From positions 1-33,092 of the forward strand of contig JAHJHM010000127.1 of the NCBI GenBank assembly GCA_018823915.1: a stretch of 33,092 bases of DNA, given 5' to 3'. Below the pieces are notes generated by a model that saw only the letters and a list, made by a program, of their open reading frames with translations, searched no databases and was not told the DNA's origin. A program made the position numbers and the translations under genes. Source of the stretch: Candidatus Omnitrophota bacterium (GTDB lineage Bacteria; Omnitrophota; Gorgyraeia; Duberdicusellales; 4484-171). Positions 4,680-32,797 of the stretch are shown here, piece by piece (the stretch's first letter is position 1; each line of letters starts with the position of its first letter).

Positions 4680-5746
4680 AATTAAAAAGCTTAAGGGATA
4701 AAATAGATAGAATAGATGAAAAAATTCTCAAACTTCTTAACCAAAGAGCAGGGGAGGCCATAAAGGTTAGTGAGGTAAAAGAAAAAAGCAGCTCAAGAAT
4801 TTATTCTCCCGCAAGAGAGGCAAATATTTTAAATCAGCTTAAAAAAATGAATAAAGGCCCCTTGACTACCGAAGACACTGAAATGGTTTTTGGAGAAATA
4901 TTATCTGTATGCCGTTCTCAGAAGACAGTTTTAAGGGCAGCTTATTTAGGCCCGCAAGGGACGTTTACTCATTTAGCGGCAATAAAAAAGTTTGGAAAGA
5001 AATCAGAATATATCCCTAGCGAAAGCATTGGCGAGGTGTTTGAAAGAGTAGAAAAAGGAGAAGTTGATTACGGAGTGGTCCCTATAGAGAATTCTATTGA
5101 AGGGGTGGTTAATTATACCTTAGATATGTTTTTCGTATCAACGCTTAAGATATGCGCAGAGGTAACTTTAAACGTTTCTCATTCTCTCTTAGGCACTTCT
5201 CTTAAATTCGCGAAGTCTAAGATAAAAAAGATATACTCCAATCCTCAAGTCTTCGCTCAGTGCCGGAAGTGGATTTCCCGTAACATGCCTGATATAGAGT
5301 TAATTCCTGTTTCTTCTACTGCTTACGCGGCGCAAGCCGTAAAGAAAGATAGCGAAGCCGCTTGTATCGGAAATAAAATTCTCACCAACCTTTACGGGCT
5401 TAAAATTATTGCCACGCCATTGCAAGATTCCCCGCACAACTTTACCCGGTTTTTAATTATTGCTAAAAATGACAGCCTTCCTTCAGGGAGAGATAAAACT
5501 TCCATTCTATTCTCGATAAAGGATAAAGTAGGCGCTTTATGCAATGTGCTTACTTCGTTTGAAAAATATCGAATATCACTCACTAAGATAGAGTCGCGCC
5601 CTTCTAAGAGAAAACCCTGGGAATACTATTTTTTCGTGGATTTCACCGGACATAGAAATCTTACTCGAGTGCAAAAAGTGTTAAAAGAACTAAAAAAGGG
5701 GTGCCTTTTTGTGAAAATTCTTGGTTCTTACCCTACGGAAAGCTAA
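4676..5746 (+). CDS. pheA: Bifunctional chorismate mutase / prephenate dehydratase (P-protein)
   Basis: N-terminal CM_2 helix (LRDKIDRIDEKILKLLNQRA), a PDT domain (YLGPQGTFTH) and a C-terminal ACT domain (ESRPS motif). ATGA overlap with the upstream gene. Confidence 0.93.
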   Translation: MKLKSLRDKIDRIDEKILKLLNQRAGEAIKVSEVKEKSSSRIYSPAREANILNQLKKMNKGPLTTEDTEMVFGEILSVCRSQKTVLRAAYLGPQGTFTHLAAIKKFGKKSEYIPSESIGEVFERVEKGEVDYGVVPIENSIEGVVNYTLDMFFVSTLKICAEVTLNVSHSLLGTSLKFAKSKIKKIYSNPQVFAQCRKWISRNMPDIELIPVSSTAYAAQAVKKDSEAACIGNKILTNLYGLKIIATPLQDSPHNFTRFLIIAKNDSLPSGRDKTSILFSIKDKVGALCNVLTSFEKYRISLTKIESRPSKRKPWEYYFFVDFTGHRNLTRVQKVLKELKKGCLFVKILGSYPTES

Positions 5747-5750
5747 TAAA

Positions 5751-5841
5751 CACGAATATACACGAATTACGTACGAATGTACACGAATAAAAATTTGTGT
5801 TGATTTGTGTGAGTTTTAAGGTGGATTAGTGCTGATTCGTG
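5751..5841. repeat. Phased repeat block: 4 x (C)ACGAAT at 10-11 nt spacing followed by inverted ATTTGTG/ATTAGTG/ATTCGTG copies; folds as a long imperfect hairpin
   Basis: ACGAAT at 5752, 5762, 5773, 5783. ATTTGTG at 5793 and 5803. ATTAGTG at 5825. ATTCGTG at 5835. Pairing 5773-5788 with 5793-5810 uses G-U wobbles and is followed by GTTTT, so this may be the pheA terminator. Confidence 0.8.
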
Positions 5842-5849
5842 GAGCAAAA

Positions 5850-6989
5850 ATGAGATTTATAAAAGAACTAAAGAATCTAAAAGTTTATAAACCGGGTAAA
5901 CCAATTGAAGAAGTTAAGGGATCTTTAGGTTTGGAAACGGTATACAAGCTTGCCTCCAATGAAATTCCTTTCCCTCCTTTGTATATCCGTAAAAGTATCC
6001 AGGCAGAATTAGAGAATATTAATCGTTACCCCCAAGGAAGTTGTCATTATTTAAGAAAATTTTTAGCTAAAAAATTTAGAATCAATGAGAGCCAAATTGT
6101 TTTTGGTAATGGCTCGGATGAAATAATTGTGCTTACCTTGCGAGCCCTAATAGAAAAAGGCGATGAGGTTATAGTTGCTTATCCTACATTTTTAATTTAT
6201 GAAATTCAGGCAGCGATTTCCGGAGCGAAAGTGGTAAGGGTTCCTTTAAAAGAGTTTCATTATGATTTGCCAGAGCTGGCGAAAAAAGTAAACAGAAAGA
6301 CGAAAATCATTTTCATTGCTAATCCGGATAATCCCACAGGAACTTATTGTAACCATAAAGAAATAAGTAATTTTCTTAAATTAATACCCAAAAGCGTATT
6401 GGTTTATTTTGATGAGGCTTATTTTGAGTTTGCCCCTGGAGATTTCCCAAAAACAGAGCAATTTTTAAGGATGAGAGATAATGTTATTTTTACCCGAACA
6501 TTCTCTAAGGCTTATGCCTTGGCAGGCTTGCGAATTGGTTATGGAATCACAACACTTAAAATCGCTGCTGCCTTAAATAAAGTCAGAGAACCGTTTAATA
6601 TAAATAGATTTGCTCAAGTAGCTGGTGTTTGCGCTTTAGAAAATAAAGGTTTTTTAAAAAAGGTGATACCTTACATTGAGAGAGAAAAAAAGTATCTCTA
6701 TGGTGGTTTAAGTGGTTTAGGAGTTTTTTTTGTAGAAAGCGCCGCTAATTTTATCCTTATTGATCTTAAAAAAGATACAAAAAGTCTTTATAATTACCTT
6801 TTAAAGAAAGGGGTTATCGTACGGGAATTAAGAGGCTGGGGGTTGAAGAATTTTTTTCGAGTGACTATTGGATTGCATAAGGAAAATAAGAAATTCATAG
6901 GATGCCTTAGGGGCTATCTACAAAAAAGTAATAAGTGCGGTCGTAGTATAGTTGAATTTAAACATTGTCCCTCGCGCCTGAATATCTGA
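5850..6989 (+). CDS. hisC: Histidinol-phosphate/aromatic aminotransferase (class II PLP aminotransferase)
   Basis: YPDP-like region (NPDNPTG) and the SFSKAYALAGLRIGY PLP-lysine motif. ATG 5850 is preferred over GTG 5829. The last approx 20 codons (KSNKCGRSIVEFKHCPSRLNI) read into repeat sequence; see findings. Confidence 0.88.
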   Translation: MRFIKELKNLKVYKPGKPIEEVKGSLGLETVYKLASNEIPFPPLYIRKSIQAELENINRYPQGSCHYLRKFLAKKFRINESQIVFGNGSDEIIVLTLRALIEKGDEVIVAYPTFLIYEIQAAISGAKVVRVPLKEFHYDLPELAKKVNRKTKIIFIANPDNPTGTYCNHKEISNFLKLIPKSVLVYFDEAYFEFAPGDFPKTEQFLRMRDNVIFTRTFSKAYALAGLRIGYGITTLKIAAALNKVREPFNINRFAQVAGVCALENKGFLKKVIPYIEREKKYLYGGLSGLGVFFVESAANFILIDLKKDTKSLYNYLLKKGVIVRELRGWGLKNFFRVTIGLHKENKKFIGCLRGYLQKSNKCGRSIVEFKHCPSRLNI

Positions 6990-7033
6990 AAAATCTCTTG
7001 CGACATTTTTCAGAAGCGCTTCGGGATCAATTC
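6964..7033 (+). repeat. 70-nt structured dispersed repeat, copy A
   Basis: 67 of 70 positions are identical to 12212-12281. Internal perfect 9-bp stem CTGAAAAAT/ATTTTTCAG with a 10-nt loop, and an outer CCC..GCGC/GCGC..GGG stem. The hisC stop codon (6987-6989) lies inside it. Confidence 0.9.
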
Positions 7034-8117: not shown

Positions 8118-8152
8118 AAAATGCAAAATGCAAAATGCAAAATGCAAAATTG
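8118..8152. repeat. Heptamer tandem array, AAAATGC x4 + AAAATTG
   Basis: Four perfect units plus one variant, starting 5 nt after the DAHP synthase stop. Confidence 0.95.
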
Positions 8153-9680: not shown

Positions 9681-9715
9681 GTTTATGGTTTATGGTTGAT
9701 GGTTTATAGGTTGGA
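9681..9715. repeat. Heptamer tandem array GTTTATG x2, GTTGATG, GTTTATA, GGTTGGA
   Basis: Strict 7-nt period starting 8 nt after the cmk stop. Confidence 0.9.
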
Positions 9716-12205: not shown

Positions 12206-12211
12206 TAAAAT

Positions 12212-12281
12212 ATTGCCCCTCGCGCCTAAATATCTGAAAAATCTCTTGCGACATTTTTCAGAAGCGCTTCGGGATTAATTC
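12212..12281 (+). repeat. 70-nt structured dispersed repeat, copy B
   Basis: See copy A. Three substitutions, none in the 9-bp inner stem. Confidence 0.9.
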
Positions 12282-12328
12282 TCCGCCTTAGTCCAGCAGG
12301 ACACCCTGTTGGGTAGGCGGAGAATTAA
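12275..12328 (+). promoter_or_regulatory. 54-nt two-tier hairpin in the leader of the glycine-zipper lipoprotein gene, 3' arm abutting the SD
   Basis: Outer 14-bp perfect stem TTAATTCTCCGCCT/AGGCGGAGAATTAA. Inner 8-bp stem CCAGCAGG/CCTGTTGG (one G-U) with loop ACAC. SD AAGGAGG at 12327-12333 overlaps the last 2 nt of the stem. Confidence 0.6.
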
Positions 12329-12339
12329 GGAGGTGTAAG

Positions 12340-16361: not shown

Positions 16362-16386
16362 AGTTCATAGTTCATAGTTGTGAACT
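16362..16386. repeat. Heptamer array AGTTCAT x2 + AGTTGTG with embedded AGTTCA/TGAACT hairpin
   Basis: Starts at the base after the htrA stop codon. Same unit family as 27432-27473. Confidence 0.8.
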
Positions 16387-16459: not shown

Positions 16460-16921
16460 ATGAAAAAAGTCAGTGAAGGCTCGCTTCTTGCGAAAGCGCT
16501 AAATTATTCTTTTCTTCTCCTAAGGTATAGGCCGCGAAGCAGAGAGGAAATTATCTCCCGTCTGAAGGAAAAAGGATATCCGTCATCCCTAATAGAGGGA
16601 ACATTAGATTATCTGGAGGAAAAGAATTATATTAATGATGAGGAGTTCGCGCGGACAGCTATTTTTTCTTCTTTGCAGAAGGGGTATGGAAGGAGAAGAA
16701 TTGAATTTATGCTTAAAAAGCTAGGGATTGAGCAGAGTTTAATTGAGGAAAGTTTAAAAAAATACGATTTTAAGGAAAAAATTAGAGAATTAGTAGAAAA
16801 AAAGATTGATTATTATAAAGGGCCGCAAAAATATCAGAAAATTTTAAACTATTTAATTTCAAGAGGCTTTGACCAGGACGAAATTCAAAAAGAGATGCAG
16901 AATTTGGGAGTTGTGGAATAA
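16460..16921 (+). CDS. recX: RecA regulator RecX
   Basis: 153 aa with a three-fold helical-repeat pattern (ALNYSFLLLRYRPRSREEIISRLKEKGY...). Conserved recX-alaS neighbourhood. Stop overlaps the alaS start (TAATG). Confidence 0.85.
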   Translation: MKKVSEGSLLAKALNYSFLLLRYRPRSREEIISRLKEKGYPSSLIEGTLDYLEEKNYINDEEFARTAIFSSLQKGYGRRRIEFMLKKLGIEQSLIEESLKKYDFKEKIRELVEKKIDYYKGPQKYQKILNYLISRGFDQDEIQKEMQNLGVVE

Positions 16922-19581
16922 TGAAGACAGATGATTTAAGAAAGACTTTTTTAGAGTTTTTTAAAAGCAAAGGCCACAAAATTTATCCTTCGGATAGTTT
17001 AGTCCCTGATGACCCCACCATTTTTTTTACTTGCGCAGGGATGAATCAGTTTAAACCTTATTTTTTGGGAGAAAGAAAGGATTGTCAACGCGCGGCCTCG
17101 GTTCAGAAGTGTTTGCGCACGGACGATCTCTTAAAAGTAGGCAAAACCGCTTATCACCATACTTTTTTTGAAGTGTTAGGCAATTTTTCTTTTGGTGACT
17201 ACTTTAAAAAAGAAGCAATAGAATTTGCATGGGGATTTCTCACTCAACATTTGAACATAAAACAAGAGGATTTGTGGATTTCTGTTTACAAGCTGGATGA
17301 GCAAGCTTACCGAATCTGGAAAGATTATATCGGTGTTTCCCAAGATAGAATAGTTAAGTTGGCAGAAGCAAGTAATTTTTGGCCGGCTAATGCTCCTGCC
17401 CTTGGACCTAACGGCCCTTGCGGCCCGTGTTCAGAAATTTTCTTTGATAAGGGAGAAATTAGCGGGTGCGGAAGAGGAGAATGTAATCCTGCTTGTGACT
17501 GCGGGAGGTTTGTGGAAGTTTGGAATTTAGTTTTTACTCAGTTTAATCGTGTAGGGGAAAACAAATTGGAACCTCTTCCTCAGAGGAATATTGATACTGG
17601 AATGGGGATAGAGAGGATGGCTTCTGTTTTGCAGGGCAAAAACACTAATTTTGAAATCGATATTTTATCTCCCGCGGTAGAGTTTGTAAAAGAATTACTA
17701 CGAACTACGAACTACCCTCCGATTGCGCTCAGGGCAGGCGAACTACGAACTACGAATTCAATAAATGCTATTACCGATCATACGCGGGCAGCAACTTTTG
17801 CCATTGCTGATGGAGTGTATCCAACAAATGAGGAAAGAGGTTATGTGGTAAGAAAAATTATCAGAAAAGCTGTATGGAAAGGGCATCTTCTGGGAAGGCG
17901 TAAGGCTTTTCTTTATGAATTAGTCAGTTGCTTTGCCGAGTTGATGAAGGAGCCTTACCCGGAAATTAATGAAAAGAAAGAAGTCATTAGCAGGGTAATT
18001 CGCGTGGAAGAAGAAAGATTTCTTCTCACTTTAGAAAACGTAAAACAGCAGTTCTCAGTAATTATTGACGGTTTAAAAAAAGAAAATAAGGATATAGTGG
18101 GAGCTCCTGAGTTATTCCAGTTCCATGATACTTATGGGTTTCCCTTAGAGTTAAGTAGAGAGATTGCATGGGCTCACAACATGAAAATAGACGCCCAGGG
18201 GTTTGAGGTATTATTAAAAGATCAGCAGGAGCGTTCCCGTAAGAGGAGCAGTTTTGTGGATAGTGTTTTTTTAAAAGATTCTCCAGGTATTAAAATTCTT
18301 AAAGAGAATAAAACAAAATTTGTGGGATACGATTGCACAATTCACCAAGCCCTCGTTCTATTAATCAGAAAGGGCGAAAAGGATGTTGAGGTTCTTGCCG
18401 AAGGCGAGGGAGGCTTAATTATTTTGAAGGAAACACCTTTTTATCCTGAAAGCGGCGGGCAATTATCTGATAGAGGGATCATTAAAACCCAAAGAGGAGA
18501 GTTTTTGGTTGATGAAGTGTTTAGGTTGGCAGATGCTATCATTCATAAAGGAAGAATGATAAATGGGAAAATCCAAAGTGGCGAAATTGTTAACGCAATG
18601 GTAGAGGTAAAAAGAAGAAGAGCGATATCTCGCGCGCACACTGCTGCTCATCTTCTCCAGGCGGCATTAAGGGTAACATTGGGCGCCCATGTTGCCCAAC
18701 AGGGTTCGTTGGTTGACGATGATAGGCTGCGTTTTGATTTTACGCATTTTGAAGGTATTAGAAAAATTAACTTAAAAGAAATCGAGCAGTTAGTAAATAA
18801 GTATATATTAAGAGGGAGTAAGGTTGAAAAATATATTATGTCCCAAGAGGAAGCAAGAAAGCAGGGGGCTTTAGCTTTTTTTAAAGATAAATATGCCGAA
18901 TATGTAAGAGTCGTTTCTATATCTAATCTCAGTAAGGAACTGTGCGCGGGAACGCATCTTGAGAATACTTCCGGGATTGGGCTTTTCTCCATTATTTCCG
19001 AATCTTCGATAAGCAGCGGGATAAGAAGGATAGAGGCAGTAGTGGGTGAGAAAGCATACAGTCATTTCCAAATTTTAGAAACAAACATAAAAGATGTTGC
19101 GGATGTGTTGAACTGCAATCCCCAGGATTTACCAAATTTTACAAAGAAACTTAAAGAAGAACTTAAAAAAGAAAAAGAGAAGGTGGAAGTATTAAATAAA
19201 GAGATTCTAACATTCTCGATAAAGGATATTGTTAAAAATAAAAAAACCGTAGAGGGAGTAAATGTGTTAGTGTATGAGTTACCAGGAGCTAGCAAAGAAA
19301 GCCTCCTGTGCCTTTATGATTTATCGCGCAAACAAATTAGCTCTTTGTTTGTTTTTTTCTATAGCTTGCTTTCCAAAAAGAGCATTTTTGTTTGCGCGAT
19401 GAGTGATGATATCGTGGATAAAGGTTTTAGCTGCAAGAAATTTATTTCTCTTTTCGAGAAAGAATTATTTTTAAAAGGCGGCGGCAGAGATAGCTTAGTT
19501 CAGGGTATTATAGAAAAAAAACAGGAAAATTTTAGAGAAAAGGTTGAAAAGAATCTTGTCGGATTCTTAAATAGGCAGTAG
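16921..19581 (+). CDS. alaS: Alanine--tRNA ligase
   Basis: 886 aa. FTCAGMNQFKP, GPCGPCSEIF, editing-domain HTAAHLL and CAGTH motifs, C-terminal DHHA1 domain (GGGR). Carries an in-frame repeat insertion at 17698-17756. Confidence 0.97.
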   Translation: MKTDDLRKTFLEFFKSKGHKIYPSDSLVPDDPTIFFTCAGMNQFKPYFLGERKDCQRAASVQKCLRTDDLLKVGKTAYHHTFFEVLGNFSFGDYFKKEAIEFAWGFLTQHLNIKQEDLWISVYKLDEQAYRIWKDYIGVSQDRIVKLAEASNFWPANAPALGPNGPCGPCSEIFFDKGEISGCGRGECNPACDCGRFVEVWNLVFTQFNRVGENKLEPLPQRNIDTGMGIERMASVLQGKNTNFEIDILSPAVEFVKELLRTTNYPPIALRAGELRTTNSINAITDHTRAATFAIADGVYPTNEERGYVVRKIIRKAVWKGHLLGRRKAFLYELVSCFAELMKEPYPEINEKKEVISRVIRVEEERFLLTLENVKQQFSVIIDGLKKENKDIVGAPELFQFHDTYGFPLELSREIAWAHNMKIDAQGFEVLLKDQQERSRKRSSFVDSVFLKDSPGIKILKENKTKFVGYDCTIHQALVLLIRKGEKDVEVLAEGEGGLIILKETPFYPESGGQLSDRGIIKTQRGEFLVDEVFRLADAIIHKGRMINGKIQSGEIVNAMVEVKRRRAISRAHTAAHLLQAALRVTLGAHVAQQGSLVDDDRLRFDFTHFEGIRKINLKEIEQLVNKYILRGSKVEKYIMSQEEARKQGALAFFKDKYAEYVRVVSISNLSKELCAGTHLENTSGIGLFSIISESSISSGIRRIEAVVGEKAYSHFQILETNIKDVADVLNCNPQDLPNFTKKLKEELKKEKEKVEVLNKEILTFSIKDIVKNKKTVEGVNVLVYELPGASKESLLCLYDLSRKQISSLFVFFYSLLSKKSIFVCAMSDDIVDKGFSCKKFISLFEKELFLKGGGRDSLVQGIIEKKQENFREKVEKNLVGFLNRQ
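17698..17756 (+). mobile_element. In-frame 45-nt insertion in alaS: GC-rich core flanked by a 14-nt direct repeat made of CTACGAA heptamers
   Basis: CTACGAACTACGAA occurs at 17698-17711 and 17743-17756, an offset of 45 nt (15 codons). The protein reads LRTTN-YPPIALRAGE-LRTTN. Core GATTGCGCTCAGGGCAG (17721-17737) matches 20930-20946 at 14 of 17 positions. Confidence 0.6.
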
Positions 19582-20886: not shown

Positions 20887-20982
20887 CAAAATGCAAAATG
20901 AAAAATGCAAAAGTTTAAATCAACCATTTGATTACACTCAGGGTAGATGGCGAGCGAAGTCGAACCATCAAAATTCAAAAGT
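20887..20982 (+). repeat. Composite element: CAAAATG-family heptamers (x4), a 54-nt GC-richer core, then CAAAATT CAAAAGT heptamers
   Basis: Heptamers at 20887-20914 and 20969-20982. The core contains GATTACACTCAGGGTAG (20930-20946) and a GATGG-CGA-GCGAAG-TCG-AA-CCATC hairpin (20946-20969). Confidence 0.75.
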
Positions 20983-21618: not shown

Positions 21619-21656
21619 TAGTTTATAGCTATAAACCATACACCATAAACTATAAA
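21619..21656. repeat. Palindrome GTTTATAGCTATAAAC plus heptamer array CTATAAA CCATACA CCATAAA CTATAAA (reverse complement of the GTTTATG family)
   Basis: 7-nt period from 21629 to 21656. This is the reverse complement of the units seen at 9681-9715 and 25364-25398. Confidence 0.85.
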
Positions 21657-21673
21657 CTTTTAGAAATAACAGT

Positions 21674-22438: not shown

Positions 22439-22519
22439 AGGGGACAGACGATTAAAGGGGACAGACACTTTTTTATTGAATAAAAAAGTGTCTGTCCCCT
22501 TTAATCCCCCCTTTAATCC
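22433..22519. repeat. Tandem 17-mer (GATTAAAGGGGACAGAC x2) forming a 26-bp perfect palindrome, extendable to 37 bp; possible bidirectional terminator between hisA and rnfC
   Basis: Arms 22450-22475 and 22481-22506 are perfectly complementary, with loop TTGAA. An outer 11-bp pairing joins 22433-22443 with 22508-22518. The first unit contains the hisA stop codon. Confidence 0.85.
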
Positions 22520-24816: not shown

Positions 24817-25364
24817 AAGAGGCATTTAAAATAATAGTAGTTTTAACCGTTATATGTTTAATTTGTGCTTTTTTTCTTTCTTTTGTTTTTAGTGTAGCCA
24901 AAGAAAAAATAGAGATGAATGCTAAAAGGGCAATTGAAGAGGGGATTTCTAAATTAGCCCCTTGCGCTAAAAGGGTAGAGGAGATCAAATTAAAAGACGA
25001 GGTTGTGTATAAACTTTTTGATGAGCAGGATAATTCGGTTGGCTATGCTTTTTTGGCCCAAGGCCAAGGCTATCAGGGAAAGATAAAAATTTTAGCCGTG
25101 GTTGACTCATCTTTAGAAAAATTAGAAGGTATAGAAGTAGTGGAATCAGTAGAAACCCCTGGATTAGGAGCAAGAATTACAGAGGCTCTTTTCATGGAGC
25201 AGTTTAAAAAGTTAACTGTAATTCCCAAAATAGAATATGTAAAGGAAGAAGTAGAGAAAGATAATCAGATAATGGCAATTACTGGAGCGACTGTCACATC
25301 CAAGGCAGTAGTGAATATTTTGAATAAGAGGATAGAGGAGCTAAGAGAAGAATTAAAGGGGTAG
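24813..25364 (+). CDS. rnfG: Rnf complex subunit G
   Basis: Single N-terminal TM helix, FMN_bind domain with ITGATVTSKAV motif. GTG start overlaps the rnfD stop. Confidence 0.9.
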   Translation: MKEAFKIIVVLTVICLICAFFLSFVFSVAKEKIEMNAKRAIEEGISKLAPCAKRVEEIKLKDEVVYKLFDEQDNSVGYAFLAQGQGYQGKIKILAVVDSSLEKLEGIEVVESVETPGLGARITEALFMEQFKKLTVIPKIEYVKEEVEKDNQIMAITGATVTSKAVVNILNKRIEELREELKG

Positions 25365-25398
25365 TTTATGGCTGATAGTTTATAGTTTATGGCTGAGA
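25364..25398. repeat. Heptamer array GTTTATG GCTGATA GTTTATA GTTTATG GCTGAGA spanning the rnfG stop and rnfE start
   Basis: 7-nt period. The rnfE ATG (25389) is the ATG of a GTTTATG unit. Confidence 0.85.
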
Positions 25399-26009
25399 TT
25401 ATAGAATCAAAAATTAAAATGAAAAAGGAATTTATTAAAGGTTTGTGGAAGGAACATCCAATTTTAAGGCAACTGTTGGGGATGTGTCCGGCCTTGGCGG
25501 TAACTACTTCGGCAATAAACGGAATCTCTATGGGCTTAGCAGTTATTTTTGTCCTTTTTTTCTCCTCCTTGGTTGTTTCTTTGATAAAGAAAGTTATTCC
25601 TCCTCAAGTGCGCATTGCTGTTTATACCGTAATTATCGCTACTTTTGTTACTGTTGTAGATATATTTTTTAAAGCAAATTTTCCTCAAATTAGCCGTGCC
25701 CTCGGCCCCTACCTTCCTTTAATTGTGGTTAATTGCATTATTCTTGGAAGATGTGAAGCCTTTGCTTCTAAAAATAGTGTATTGGTTTCATTGCTTGATG
25801 CTTTAGGGATGGGTTTAGGATTTATGTGGGGATTATTTCTTCTTGGTTCAATAAGGGAGATCCTTGGTTTCGGGAGTTTGTTAGGTGTAAAGATGATGCC
25901 TCCTGAATACAATCCTTTAATAATAATGATTCTGCCCGCGGGAGCATTTTTGGTGCTAGGGTTTTTAGTAGCGGTGATGAATAGATTAGAATTAAGAATT
26001 AAGGATTAA
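25389..26009 (+). CDS. rnfE: Rnf complex subunit E
   Basis: GLWKEHPILRQLLGMCPALAVT motif. The start is uncertain: ATG 25389 lies inside a heptamer repeat, and ATG 25419 is the alternative. The C-terminus and stop are encoded by the TTAAGGA array. Confidence 0.9.
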   Translation: MAEIIESKIKMKKEFIKGLWKEHPILRQLLGMCPALAVTTSAINGISMGLAVIFVLFFSSLVVSLIKKVIPPQVRIAVYTVIIATFVTVVDIFFKANFPQISRALGPYLPLIVVNCIILGRCEAFASKNSVLVSLLDALGMGLGFMWGLFLLGSIREILGFGSLLGVKMMPPEYNPLIIMILPAGAFLVLGFLVAVMNRLELRIKD

Positions 26010-26026
26010 GGATTAAGGATTAAGTA
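25985..26026. repeat. Heptamer array ATTAGAA TTAAGAA TTAAGGA x3 TTAAGTA
   Basis: 7-nt period. Encodes the last 8 codons and the TAA stop of rnfE, and provides the AAGGA SD for rnfA (ATG 26031). Confidence 0.9.
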
Positions 26027-31633: not shown

Positions 31634-31636
31634 TGT

Positions 31637-31715
31637 AAATATTCAGTGAACCACGTCTAAATTTTTCTGAATATTCAGTGCAAAATGCAAACTGCAAACT
31701 GCAAATTGCATACCC
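31637..31715. repeat. Two AATATTCAGTG boxes followed by heptamer array CAAAATG CAAACTG x2 CAAATTG CATACCC
   Basis: Boxes at 31638-31648 and 31670-31680. Heptamers at 31681-31715. Positions 31668-31691 are the exact reverse complement of 72-95. Confidence 0.9.
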
Positions 31716-31814
31716 TAACGGGCACAAGCAAGTTAAAATTACTTATTTTTCTTTGTCGTAATTACTGACTTTGCAATAATCTCCATTAGTTTTGCTATTT
31801 CTTTTAAGTTTATT

Positions 31815-31870
31815 TTGCATTTTTCACTTTGCATTTTGCAATTTGCAATAGAATGTACTTCACTTACTAC
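31815..31870. repeat. Heptamer array TTGCATT TTTCACT TTGCATT TTGCAAT x2 (+3 degenerate units), inverted relative to 31681-31715
   Basis: 7-nt period. Reverse-complement family of the array about 105 nt upstream. Confidence 0.85.
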
Positions 31871-31920
31871 CCAGCAGGGTGTCCTGTTGGACTACTCAAT
31901 AGAGTGTCCTGTTGGACTAT
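31871..31920 (+). other. 8-bp hairpin CCAGCAGG-GTGT-CCTGTTGG plus a direct repeat of its 3' half
   Basis: The stem sequence is the same as the inner stem at 12293-12312 but the loop is complemented (GTGT vs ACAC). GTGTCCTGTTGGACTA is repeated at 31879-31894 and 31904-31919. Confidence 0.7.
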
Positions 31921-31933
31921 TTATCGGGGAGTT

Positions 31934-32797
31934 TCATTCGAAAAGGGCTCCTCTGGAATAAAACCGCCTTTTCTTGTTGAAGGTATCAAATATTTCTATT
32001 TCTACAATATCTCCAGAGGAATCATAAATCTTTAAAAATTTCTTTACTGCTTTTTTTGCTTCTTCAAAAGGTTCCGGCAAACCTTCCTTATATTCTTTAA
32101 TCATAATATCAAAAATTATTCCTAATTTACCATTAAGATAGTAAGCGCGTAAGTCGTTTACTTGAAAATTATCTTTAACCTCAGGGGCAGTAAATTTTCT
32201 TTCCATGCTTTGTTTTACTAGATAAGAGATAAATTCTCCCATAGTAATATCGTATTTTTGAATATGTTCACCAACTTTATCGCCCAGAGCTTGGGGATTT
32301 TCAGATGGCGAAGAAAAAGTTCTTTCATTCATTTTTTCTGTAGAAACGTGCCCTGTCGTATAGCTTTCTATTGTATATCTTACTATATCAGGGATGAATA
32401 CTATAGTGTACCAATCTATACCGATTTTTTCTATATCTGACATAACAAAACAGTAGAATTTGGGAGGCTTATCTATATTTAAGAAAATTCTGTTTAAAGA
32501 AGAATGGATTATTCTTGTATTTTTTGAAATATCTTCATTCCACCGGCCGTCTTTAGTTATGTTCCACTGGCCATCTTCATTGATAATTTTTAAAGGGGCG
32601 TAAATCCATACCGTATCTCCCACATCCCAGACATTTACATCTATGTTAAACTCATCTTCGCACATATTTTTTATCACTTTTTCAATTTCTTTGCGGGGAT
32701 ATGTAGGAGAAATAGAGCAGGAAACAAGAAAAGTGATTGAAATGCTAAAGAGAAGAACTCGTCGGATGTGCTTTGCCATGTTTTTTGTAGAATTCAT
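31934..32797 (-). CDS. Lipoprotein of unknown function
   Basis: Lipobox ITFLVSCS after a basic N-terminus. No family recognised. Alternative start MAKHIRR at 32779. The 5' end overlaps the ftsH 3' end. Confidence 0.6.
   Translation of the reverse strand: MNSTKNMAKHIRRVLLFSISITFLVSCSISPTYPRKEIEKVIKNMCEDEFNIDVNVWDVGDTVWIYAPLKIINEDGQWNITKDGRWNEDISKNTRIIHSSLNRIFLNIDKPPKFYCFVMSDIEKIGIDWYTIVFIPDIVRYTIESYTTGHVSTEKMNERTFSSPSENPQALGDKVGEHIQKYDITMGEFISYLVKQSMERKFTAPEVKDNFQVNDLRAYYLNGKLGIIFDIMIKEYKEGLPEPFEEAKKAVKKFLKIYDSSGDIVEIEIFDTFNKKRRFYSRGALFE

Follow-up and report, generated by a model that had tools for sequence, protein, structure and literature searches.

Why does the alanyl-tRNA synthetase gene (alaS) of a Candidatus Omnitrophota bacterium contain the same 14-nt sequence, CTACGAACTACGAA, twice on the plus strand, at 17698-17711 and 17743-17756, 45 nt apart and in frame, and what lies between the two copies? 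The gene is found in contig JAHJHM010000127.1 of assembly GCA_018823915.1, of which the stretch from position 1 to 33,092 of the forward strand (33,092 nt, called the window below) was analysed. An initial annotation had regarded the feature as an in-frame insertion of 45 nt (15 codons) bounded by the 14-nt repeats; the coordinates and the frame of the repeats were confirmed. On the evidence presented here, the feature is very probably a (CTACGAA)x5 tract into which one copy of a 24/25-nt dispersed mobile repeat has been inserted.

The heptamer tract and the insert in alaS

The gene and the parts of the feature are as follows.

16921-19581, plus strand: alaS (alanine-tRNA ligase), 886 aa, the host gene, assigned from the list of open reading frames (ORFs), homologue names, solved alanyl-tRNA synthetase (AlaRS) structures and synteny
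17698-17715, plus strand: left half of the split heptamer tract, CTACGAA CTACGAA CTAC (Tandem Repeats Finder (TRF), period 7, 2.7 copies, 100% matches)
17716-17739, plus strand: 24-nt GC-rich inserted element CCTCCGATTGCGCTCAGGGCAGGC, coding for residues 266-273, PPIALRAG (consensus match, phase-exact excision, linker length and loop in an AlphaFold2 (AF2) model)
17740-17756, plus strand: right half of the split heptamer tract, GAA CTACGAA CTACGAA (TRF, period 7, 2.6 copies, 100% matches)

Across the insert site the protein reads KELLRTTNYPPIALRAGELRTTNSINAITDH. When 17716-17739 is removed, the two halves rejoin in phase to form a perfect (CTACGAA)x5, leaving an 878-aa protein with the linker KELLRTTNYELRTTNSINAITDH, which can be aligned without a gap to that of the homologue P0011 (KELLRATSKDLQTTSLINAIVDH; 15 of 23 residues identical). 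The length of this linker, counted as the residues between two conserved anchors in 118 Omnitrophota AlaRS, ranges from 22 to 38 with a mode of 27 (70 of the 118 homologues); it is 35 in the window, and excision of 24 nt brings it to the modal 27. Since the tract is in phase and the linker modal after removal of 24 nt, the inserted unit is taken to be 24 nt (8 codons), not the 45 nt of the initial annotation. On sequence grounds, the two 14-nt repeats, which had been thought to bound the element, belong to a single (CTACGAA)x5 tract that it split in two, one repeat to each half, and are neither its ends nor a target duplication. That the segment is an insertion relative to the orthologues, as had been suggested, was borne out by their alignment: the 24-nt insert is absent from all 118 other homologues, and the alaS DNA of P0011 shows an imperfect 21-nt quasi-repeat with neither perfect heptamers nor the core.

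The earlier model, in which a 45-nt element (the 24-nt core plus 21 nt of heptamers) was inserted with the 14-nt repeats as its termini or as a target duplication, has in its favour the exactness of the repeats and their spacing of 45 nt, a number divisible by 3; in a tandem target, moreover, duplication of whole heptamers would be indistinguishable from pre-existing units. It is nevertheless very unlikely. Excision of 45 nt leaves a linker of 20 residues, below the minimum of all 118 homologues, whereas removal of 24 nt gives the mode; conservation across 83 copies of the repeat family stops exactly at a 25-nt unit; and no target duplication is seen in 42 other copies or at the paired queA sites described below. 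The model would lead one to expect a close-relative orthologue with KELLRTTNSINAITDH, 15 residues shorter.

A different possibility is that a heptamer-core-heptamer cassette was imported whole, for example by gene conversion from an intergenic tract, and took the place of the native linker, making the gene 24 nt longer. Heptamer tracts bearing the element do exist in spacers (20887-20982 of the window, and the loci L013, L047 and L008 in other genomes), and a related heptamer, CTATGAA, is located 1.3 kb upstream, at 16364-16377. It was found in a search of the window for CTACGAACTACGAA with at most 2 mismatches, which gave 3 matches against 0.10 expected (0 of 100 shuffles gave 3), the third match being CTATGAACTATGAA on the minus strand in the htrA-recX spacer. 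Against this import, the heptamer-coded peptide LLRTTNYELRTTN aligns residue by residue with native linkers that lack perfect heptamers (P0011, LLRATSKDLQTTS; P0007, ..KELRTAS), and therefore the tract looks homologous to ancestral coding sequence; in addition, the window has no second CTACGAA tract. Import of a cassette is thus considered very unlikely, and insertion of the 24-nt unit into a resident tract is preferred.

The 59-nt feature is not peculiar to one assembly. It is identical in Logan SRR13662870 (98.45% identity) and in JGI Ga0180008_1010614 (99.9% identity), both assembled independently of the window from the same species, and therefore it is not an assembly artefact.

A second copy in the hisD-hisB spacer

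Downstream of alaS, the window contains a further copy with a heptamer tract beside it.

20887-20912, plus strand: heptamer tract (CAAAATG)x3.7, left of the spacer copy (TRF and sequence)
20924-20948, plus strand: decayed second copy CCATTTGATTACACTCAGGGTAGAT in the hisD-hisB spacer, 18 of 25 positions identical to the family consensus, 6 of the 7 differences being GC-to-AT transitions
20952-20964, minus strand: possible truncated inverted copy (tentative), whose reverse complement TTCGACTTCGCTC is a common variant of the 5' half of the family

The likeness between the core and this spacer had been pointed out in the initial annotation and holds: GATTGCGCTCAGGGCAG (17721-17737) and GATTACACTCAGGGTAG (20930-20946) are identical at 14 of 17 positions, and the three differences are all transitions. 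A site with at most 7 mismatches to the consensus was produced by only 2 of 200 shuffles of the window. To the right of the copy, two more heptamer units, CAAAATT CAAAAGT, are found at 20969-20982. The spacer is 174 nt long here, and 47 and 18 nt in syntenic relatives without the copy. From its sequence, the copy is best read as an older insertion, worn down by AT-biased mutation in a genome of 37% GC. The truncated inverted copy is suggested by the variant TTCGACTTCGCTCAGG, seen 5 times in other loci; the estimated chance probability of this copy is only about 0.06, so that the main argument for it is its adjacency to the full copy.

The repeat family across bacterial phyla

A degenerate 21-mer pattern built from both window copies was used to scan one genome per bacterial or archaeal species, and 81 loci were found, against about 17 expected by chance on the analysis's own estimate. 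The family consensus is CCCTTCGATTGCGCTCAGGGCAGGC, of 25 nt, and the alaS copy at 17715-17739 (the 24-nt unit plus the preceding C) matches it at 24 of 25 positions. Positions left free by the pattern are also conserved among 83 aligned matches, namely the preceding CCC (65-70 of 83) and the following C (68 of 83), and the information content drops to about 0 bits directly outside the 25-nt unit. When 600-nt flanks were compared all against all by BLAST, likeness was confined to the unit, except in pairs from one genome, from closely related genomes or from homologous loci (L020/L056). By record title, the carriers belong to at least 10 phyla: Acidobacteriota, Chloroflexota, Planctomycetota, Bacteroidota (including the isolate Sediminibacterium goheungense DSM 28323), WOR-3, Omnitrophota, Gemmatimonadota, Peribacteria, Fibrobacterota, Eremiobacterota and Proteobacteria. 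The GC content of the host loci ranges from 31 to 72%. Most carriers are metagenome-assembled genomes (MAGs), and some copies lie on contigs of 0.9-3.6 Mb. Variants include TTCGACTGCGCTCAGG and the above-mentioned TTCGACTTCGCTCAGG, and tandem arrays of 24- or 25-nt units are present. Collectively, the 25-nt repeat is a discrete, sharply bounded, non-palindromic unit occurring in many bacterial phyla, in agreement with the earlier proposal of a small, non-autonomous dispersed repeat, as the core has many copies in other genomes.

The unit shows no significant structure on either strand (minimum free energy -2.1 kcal/mol, z = +0.5 against shuffles) and no palindrome. Rfam gave no family in the window and none overlapping the element in 18 carrier loci. 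BLAST of a unit dimer against 5,426 E. coli genomes and 50,697 phage records gave no match. A single plasmid match of the dimer, in an integron region, is dubious and was judged to be a chance one, and a scan of viral contigs yielded only 11 loci. Among the cyanobacteria in the species scan no bona fide copy was found, and none in Nostoc; the sole hit, L040, lacks the flanking signature. No description of the motif, its reverse complement or its peptide translations was found in the searchable literature, which is incomplete, including the papers citing Elhai 2008.

Because most carriers are MAGs, an artefact, either chimeric assembly or an oligonucleotide contaminating metagenome bins, might be suspected. 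The alaS insert, however, is identical in three assemblies from different projects, copies are present in an isolate genome and on the megabase-scale contigs, and the copies vary in sequence, some being decayed and some lying in frame within conserved genes. The probability of such an artefact is close to nil.

In-frame copies are also found inside an RHS-repeat protein and a TPR protein (L065, L055), in reverse orientation, coding for the peptide ACPECNRRV. In L042 (Candidatus Amarolinea aalborgensis), two paralogous ABC-ATPase genes (about 1300-2600 and 5100-6300) contain more than 6 family copies, one of which interrupts the Walker A motif (GEVVGV|IGRNGAGKST), and some of which shift the frame. 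These genes are either pseudogenes acting as insertion sinks or something stranger. Removal of the unit at the RNA level, an idea prompted by L042, was rejected, as some copies there cause frameshifts.

Filled and empty sites in queA

The evidence for mobility comes from acidobacterial queA. In L022, a Sulfotelmatobacter MAG, the unit lies in frame within queA (Pfam E = 8.5e-127), while the orthologues L099 and L100, 92% identical to it, have an empty site, the difference being exactly 24 nt with no target duplication. The filled site reads ...CCGGACGGC, then the unit CCCTTCGATTGCGCTCAGGGCAGG, then CTTGGG..., against ...CCGGACGGCCTAGGG... in the empty one, and the junction has a one-base (C) ambiguity, as in alaS. 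Closely related genomes thus differ by the exact presence or absence of the unit. In other queA orthologues, a sequence variant is inserted 4 nt further 5', a reverse-oriented copy lies in the hairpin loop, or two units stand in tandem, and these insertion points are a few nucleotides apart within one hairpin. The unit accordingly occurs in both orientations, and sometimes in tandem, at neighbouring positions of one target.

Among 116 queA orthologues, 76 have no copy and 40 have one or more (forward in phase 1, 22; forward in phase 3, 8; reversed, 8; double, 2). The site is nested: many orthologues (P0144-P0263; 4250-4400 in L022) have a hairpin-like in-frame insert, PGVARPD..SRGRLSPHE, inside which the 24-nt unit sits in the 40 cases, and 11 of the 116 have the shortest segment between the anchors and so seemingly no insert of any kind at that site. 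The exact filled and empty sites, together with the shifted, reversed and doubled variants, are direct evidence of repeated insertion.

These observations bear on the possibility that the 25-mer is immobile: selection might produce or maintain it for some function, for instance as a site of binding or processing, and the alaS copy would be a coincidence or an ancestral loop. That the unit is nearly identical in different phyla, whatever the GC content of the host locus, does imply a constraint on its sequence. A functional motif would hardly be expected, however, to be present or absent as exactly 24 nt in queA orthologues 92% identical, to occur in both orientations, as doublets and at neighbouring insertion points, or to match at 24 of 25 positions in a coding loop absent from 118 other homologues. 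It has no Rfam family, no significant fold and no orientation preference relative to genes. An immobile motif is therefore highly improbable. For a mobile unit, such uniformity over phyla and GC contents speaks for a sequence constraint set by an insertion activity or a template.

Insertion sites and a possible mechanism

At 42 other copies, flanking direct repeats were no commoner than at control positions, and hence no target duplication was detected. A C stands on both sides of the unit in 39 of 49 copies and is missing from both sides in none of the 49. A 1-nt target duplication was considered and rejected, because in every copy with a letter other than C on one flank there is a C on the other, so that the two flanks differ. 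Flanking heptamer runs were found by a strict criterion in 2 of 43 copies against 0.1% of controls, an approximately 50-fold enrichment, and a heptamer context is seen in alaS, in the hisD-hisB spacer and in L013, L047, L008 and L004. Taken over all copies, the enrichment for heptamers is modest. Folds of the flanks are more stable than those at control positions (mean -10.1 versus -7.8 kcal/mol, p = 0.01).

In L039, L046 and L017, copies of the 25-mer occupy the loops of other hairpin repeats, for example GTCATTGCGAGGAGCG...CGCGACGCGGCAATC and GTCATTCCGAGC...CGAGGAATC. Such nesting suggests that small repeats target one another and form a layered community.

The following course of events is proposed for alaS. 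The variable linker would have contained a (CTACGAA)x5 tract, one of the period-7 tracts that seem to be spread over this genome and are otherwise almost only intergenic. Entry of the dispersed repeat between CTA(C) and (C)GAA of this tract would have lengthened the gene by 24 nt. Being non-autonomous, the unit would be placed by a sequence-specific activity acting in trans, presumably as a single-stranded copy of defined length, either ssDNA or derived from RNA. Its target might be DNA transiently out of the B-form, such as slipped heptamer tracts or the loops or stems of hairpins, beside a C.

Several points weigh against this reading. No relative closer than 59% identity lacks the insert, and therefore the empty alaS site is reconstructed, not observed; a 149-aa AlaS fragment around the insert, used as a query, found no close fragment without it, and an exact lookup of the window AlaS protein gave no match. 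Only two or three family copies are visible in the 33-kb window, and in other phyla the association with heptamer tracts is limited to a minority of copies. The hairpin result is weak, as flank pairs bridging the element (at least 7 pairs) occur in 66% of copies versus 56% of controls (p = 0.19, not significant). Relative to GC skew there is a weak orientation bias (44:26, p = 0.04), and relative to the nearest ORF there is none. The analysis identified no gene acting in trans, no donor molecule and no intermediate, and the single-strand, structure-targeted mechanism is deduced only from the anatomy of the element. Translation of the eight residues is assumed from the intact frame.

A broader proposal is that CCCTTCGATTGCGCTCAGGGCAGGC represents an undescribed pan-bacterial mobile element, among the smallest, the near-identity of which would be kept by a putative conserved trans-acting machinery or templating nucleic acid, and which would enter structure-forming DNA without duplication and routinely add 8-residue loops to housekeeping proteins (AlaRS, QueA). 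This is offered tentatively, its chances being put at somewhat below even. If it is true, very small mobile repeats, so far described once for one cyanobacterial subgroup, would turn out to be common to bacterial genomes in general, and the occurrence of one sequence family across phyla would point to a conserved insertion activity not yet known. The dozens of queA orthologues with filled, empty, reversed and doubled sites provide a testable system for the copying and insertion of 24 nt without duplication. Recurrent peptides such as PSIALRAG, PFDCAQGR, LRLRSGQA and PALSAIEG in environmental predicted proteins or spurious ORFs would be recognized as translations of the unit, and such units would be a source of small indels in essential proteins.

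Effect on the AlaRS protein

The host ORF has the tRNA-synt_2c catalytic and tRNA_SAD editing domains of a class II AlaRS in an intact reading frame, with all the catalytic and editing motifs conserved. Its homologues (50-97% identity, about 100% coverage) are named alanine--tRNA ligase and contain PF01411 and PF07973. The AF2 model of the window AlaRS (mean predicted local distance difference test (pLDDT) score 87.5) has a coil at residues 260-271, which joins helices 250-259 and 272-296 and in which pLDDT drops below 50 at residues 264-270. As the insert comprises residues 266-273, six of its eight residues fall in the coil, and in the model the second helix begins with the last two. The solved AlaRS structures are gapped exactly at the insert, by 7 residues in A. 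aeolicus (1RIQ) and by 11 in E. coli (3HXU). The view that the insert is tolerated in frame in an essential enzyme thus stands, as in the model it lies mainly in a loop.

The unit is free of stop codons in 5 of the 6 combinations of phase and orientation. Since 24 is also divisible by 3, insertion into an ORF usually adds just eight residues. This freedom from stops is not claimed as a sign of selection, since chance alone often leaves a GC-rich 24-mer without a stop codon. The parsimonious reading, given the model, is that the alaS unit is translated as a neutral surface loop, and the copy is probably a fixed, translated, neutral passenger.

Genomic setting and other repeats in the window

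The window has a GC content of 37%, and its genes are arrayed in one orientation. recA, a gene for an htrA-like protease and recX lie upstream of alaS, and hisD and hisB downstream; the order recA-htrA-recX-alaS-hisD-hisB is common to relatives. Thirteen period-7 arrays are present in the window, against 0.73 in shuffles, and 10 of the 13 are located in 1.9 kb of intergenic DNA:

51-84, 8118-8150, 9681-9712, 16362-16379 and 20887-20912: intergenic heptamer tracts
21631-21657, 25362-25390, 25991-26024, 31679-31710 and 31812-31847: further intergenic heptamer tracts

Tracts of several different units thus stand at almost every spacer, and syntenic relatives have fewer tracts and much shorter spacers. 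The heptamers at spacers are a phenomenon in Omnitrophota like that of the short tandemly repeated repetitive sequences (STRRs) of cyanobacteria.

Other repeats were noticed. A second small dispersed repeat of about 25 nt, the hairpin-forming TAGTCCARCAGGACACCCTGYTGGG, is found at 12290-12314 (plus strand), at 31869-31893 (minus strand) and partially at 31899-31914. The arms of an inverted repeat, TTAATTCTCCGCCT/AGGCGGAGAATTAA (12276-12289 and 12316-12329), enclose its copy at 12290-12314 in their loop. A 74-nt direct repeat, 95% identical, at 6960-7033 and 12208-12281, contains the hairpin TCTGAAAAATCTCTTGCGACATTTTTCAGA and precedes the ORFs 7082 and 12340; it has no match in Rfam. Near the window ends, an inverted pair of about 85 nt (55-139 and 31635-31708; 85-93% complementary) consists of heptamers and CACTGAATATTCA-type palindromes. 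A perfect 28-nt inverted repeat, GATTAAAGGGGACAGACACTTTTTTATT and its complement 1 nt apart (22450-22506), between the His_biosynth and RnfC-like genes, is probably a terminator or another repeat. The only minus-strand ORF (31934-32797, 287 aa), for which no Pfam or NCBIfam match was found, adjoins the region (31635-31930) where heptamers and small repeats cluster most densely.

Comparison with known small repeats

Miniature inverted-repeat transposable elements are 50-500 bp long and have terminal inverted repeats and a target-site duplication. The present unit has neither and is 24 nt long. STRRs are short tandem heptamers of heterocystous cyanobacteria, and are also found inside a functional RNase P RNA gene. 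They are mentioned in PMC2858038. Like them, the tandem heptamers of the window (the alaS tract and 10 intergenic ones) have few units and stand at gene boundaries; unlike them, they occur in the phylum Omnitrophota, have other unit sequences, and include one tract within a protein-coding gene. REP and REPIN sequences are short (20-40 nt), GC-rich and highly repeated, produce no target duplication, and are mobilised by RAYT (Y1 HUH) transposases, being thought to move as single strands (PMC3116915, PMC3733652). REPs lie outside genes, are imperfectly palindromic and carry a GTAG or CGTC tag (PMC3116915, PMC3733652). The unit shares with REP/REPIN its short length, its high GC content and the lack of target duplication, but it has neither a palindrome nor a GTAG/CGTC tag and is found inside ORFs.

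Rickettsia palindromic elements (RPEs), which Ogata and colleagues reportedly described in 2000, are said to be palindromes of about 100-150 bp, restricted to Rickettsia, that lie in frame in protein genes, some of them essential, where they are translated into surface segments. The 24-nt unit resembles them in being, as far as its sequence tells, non-autonomous and in frame in conserved protein genes (alaS, queA, RHS, TPR), and differs in its length of 24 nt, its lack of a palindrome and its distribution across phyla. The analogy with RPEs drawn in the initial annotation thus applies to in-frame tolerance and fails for the palindrome.

The elements that come closest, in a comparison by description and not by sequence, appear to be the small dispersed repeats (SDRs) of Nostoc. 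Elhai and colleagues are said to have described, in 2008, SDR1-8 of Nostoc punctiforme and its relatives as dispersed elements of 21-27 nt, often in tandem heptamers and sometimes nested. They reportedly have been mobile recently, as judged from filled and empty sites, and reportedly are essentially confined to one cyanobacterial subgroup, SDR4-6 forming, on the same account, a hairpin with compensatory changes. SDR5 has been found inserted precisely inside the HIP1 sequence (PMC4390886). The present unit differs in that it occurs in at least 10 non-cyanobacterial phyla and, unlike SDR4-6, has no significant fold. It resembles the SDRs of Nostoc in being a sharply bounded, dispersed unit of 24-25 nt, too small to encode anything, and in its embedding in heptamer tracts, its nested and tandem copies and its precise filled and empty sites, here in queA.

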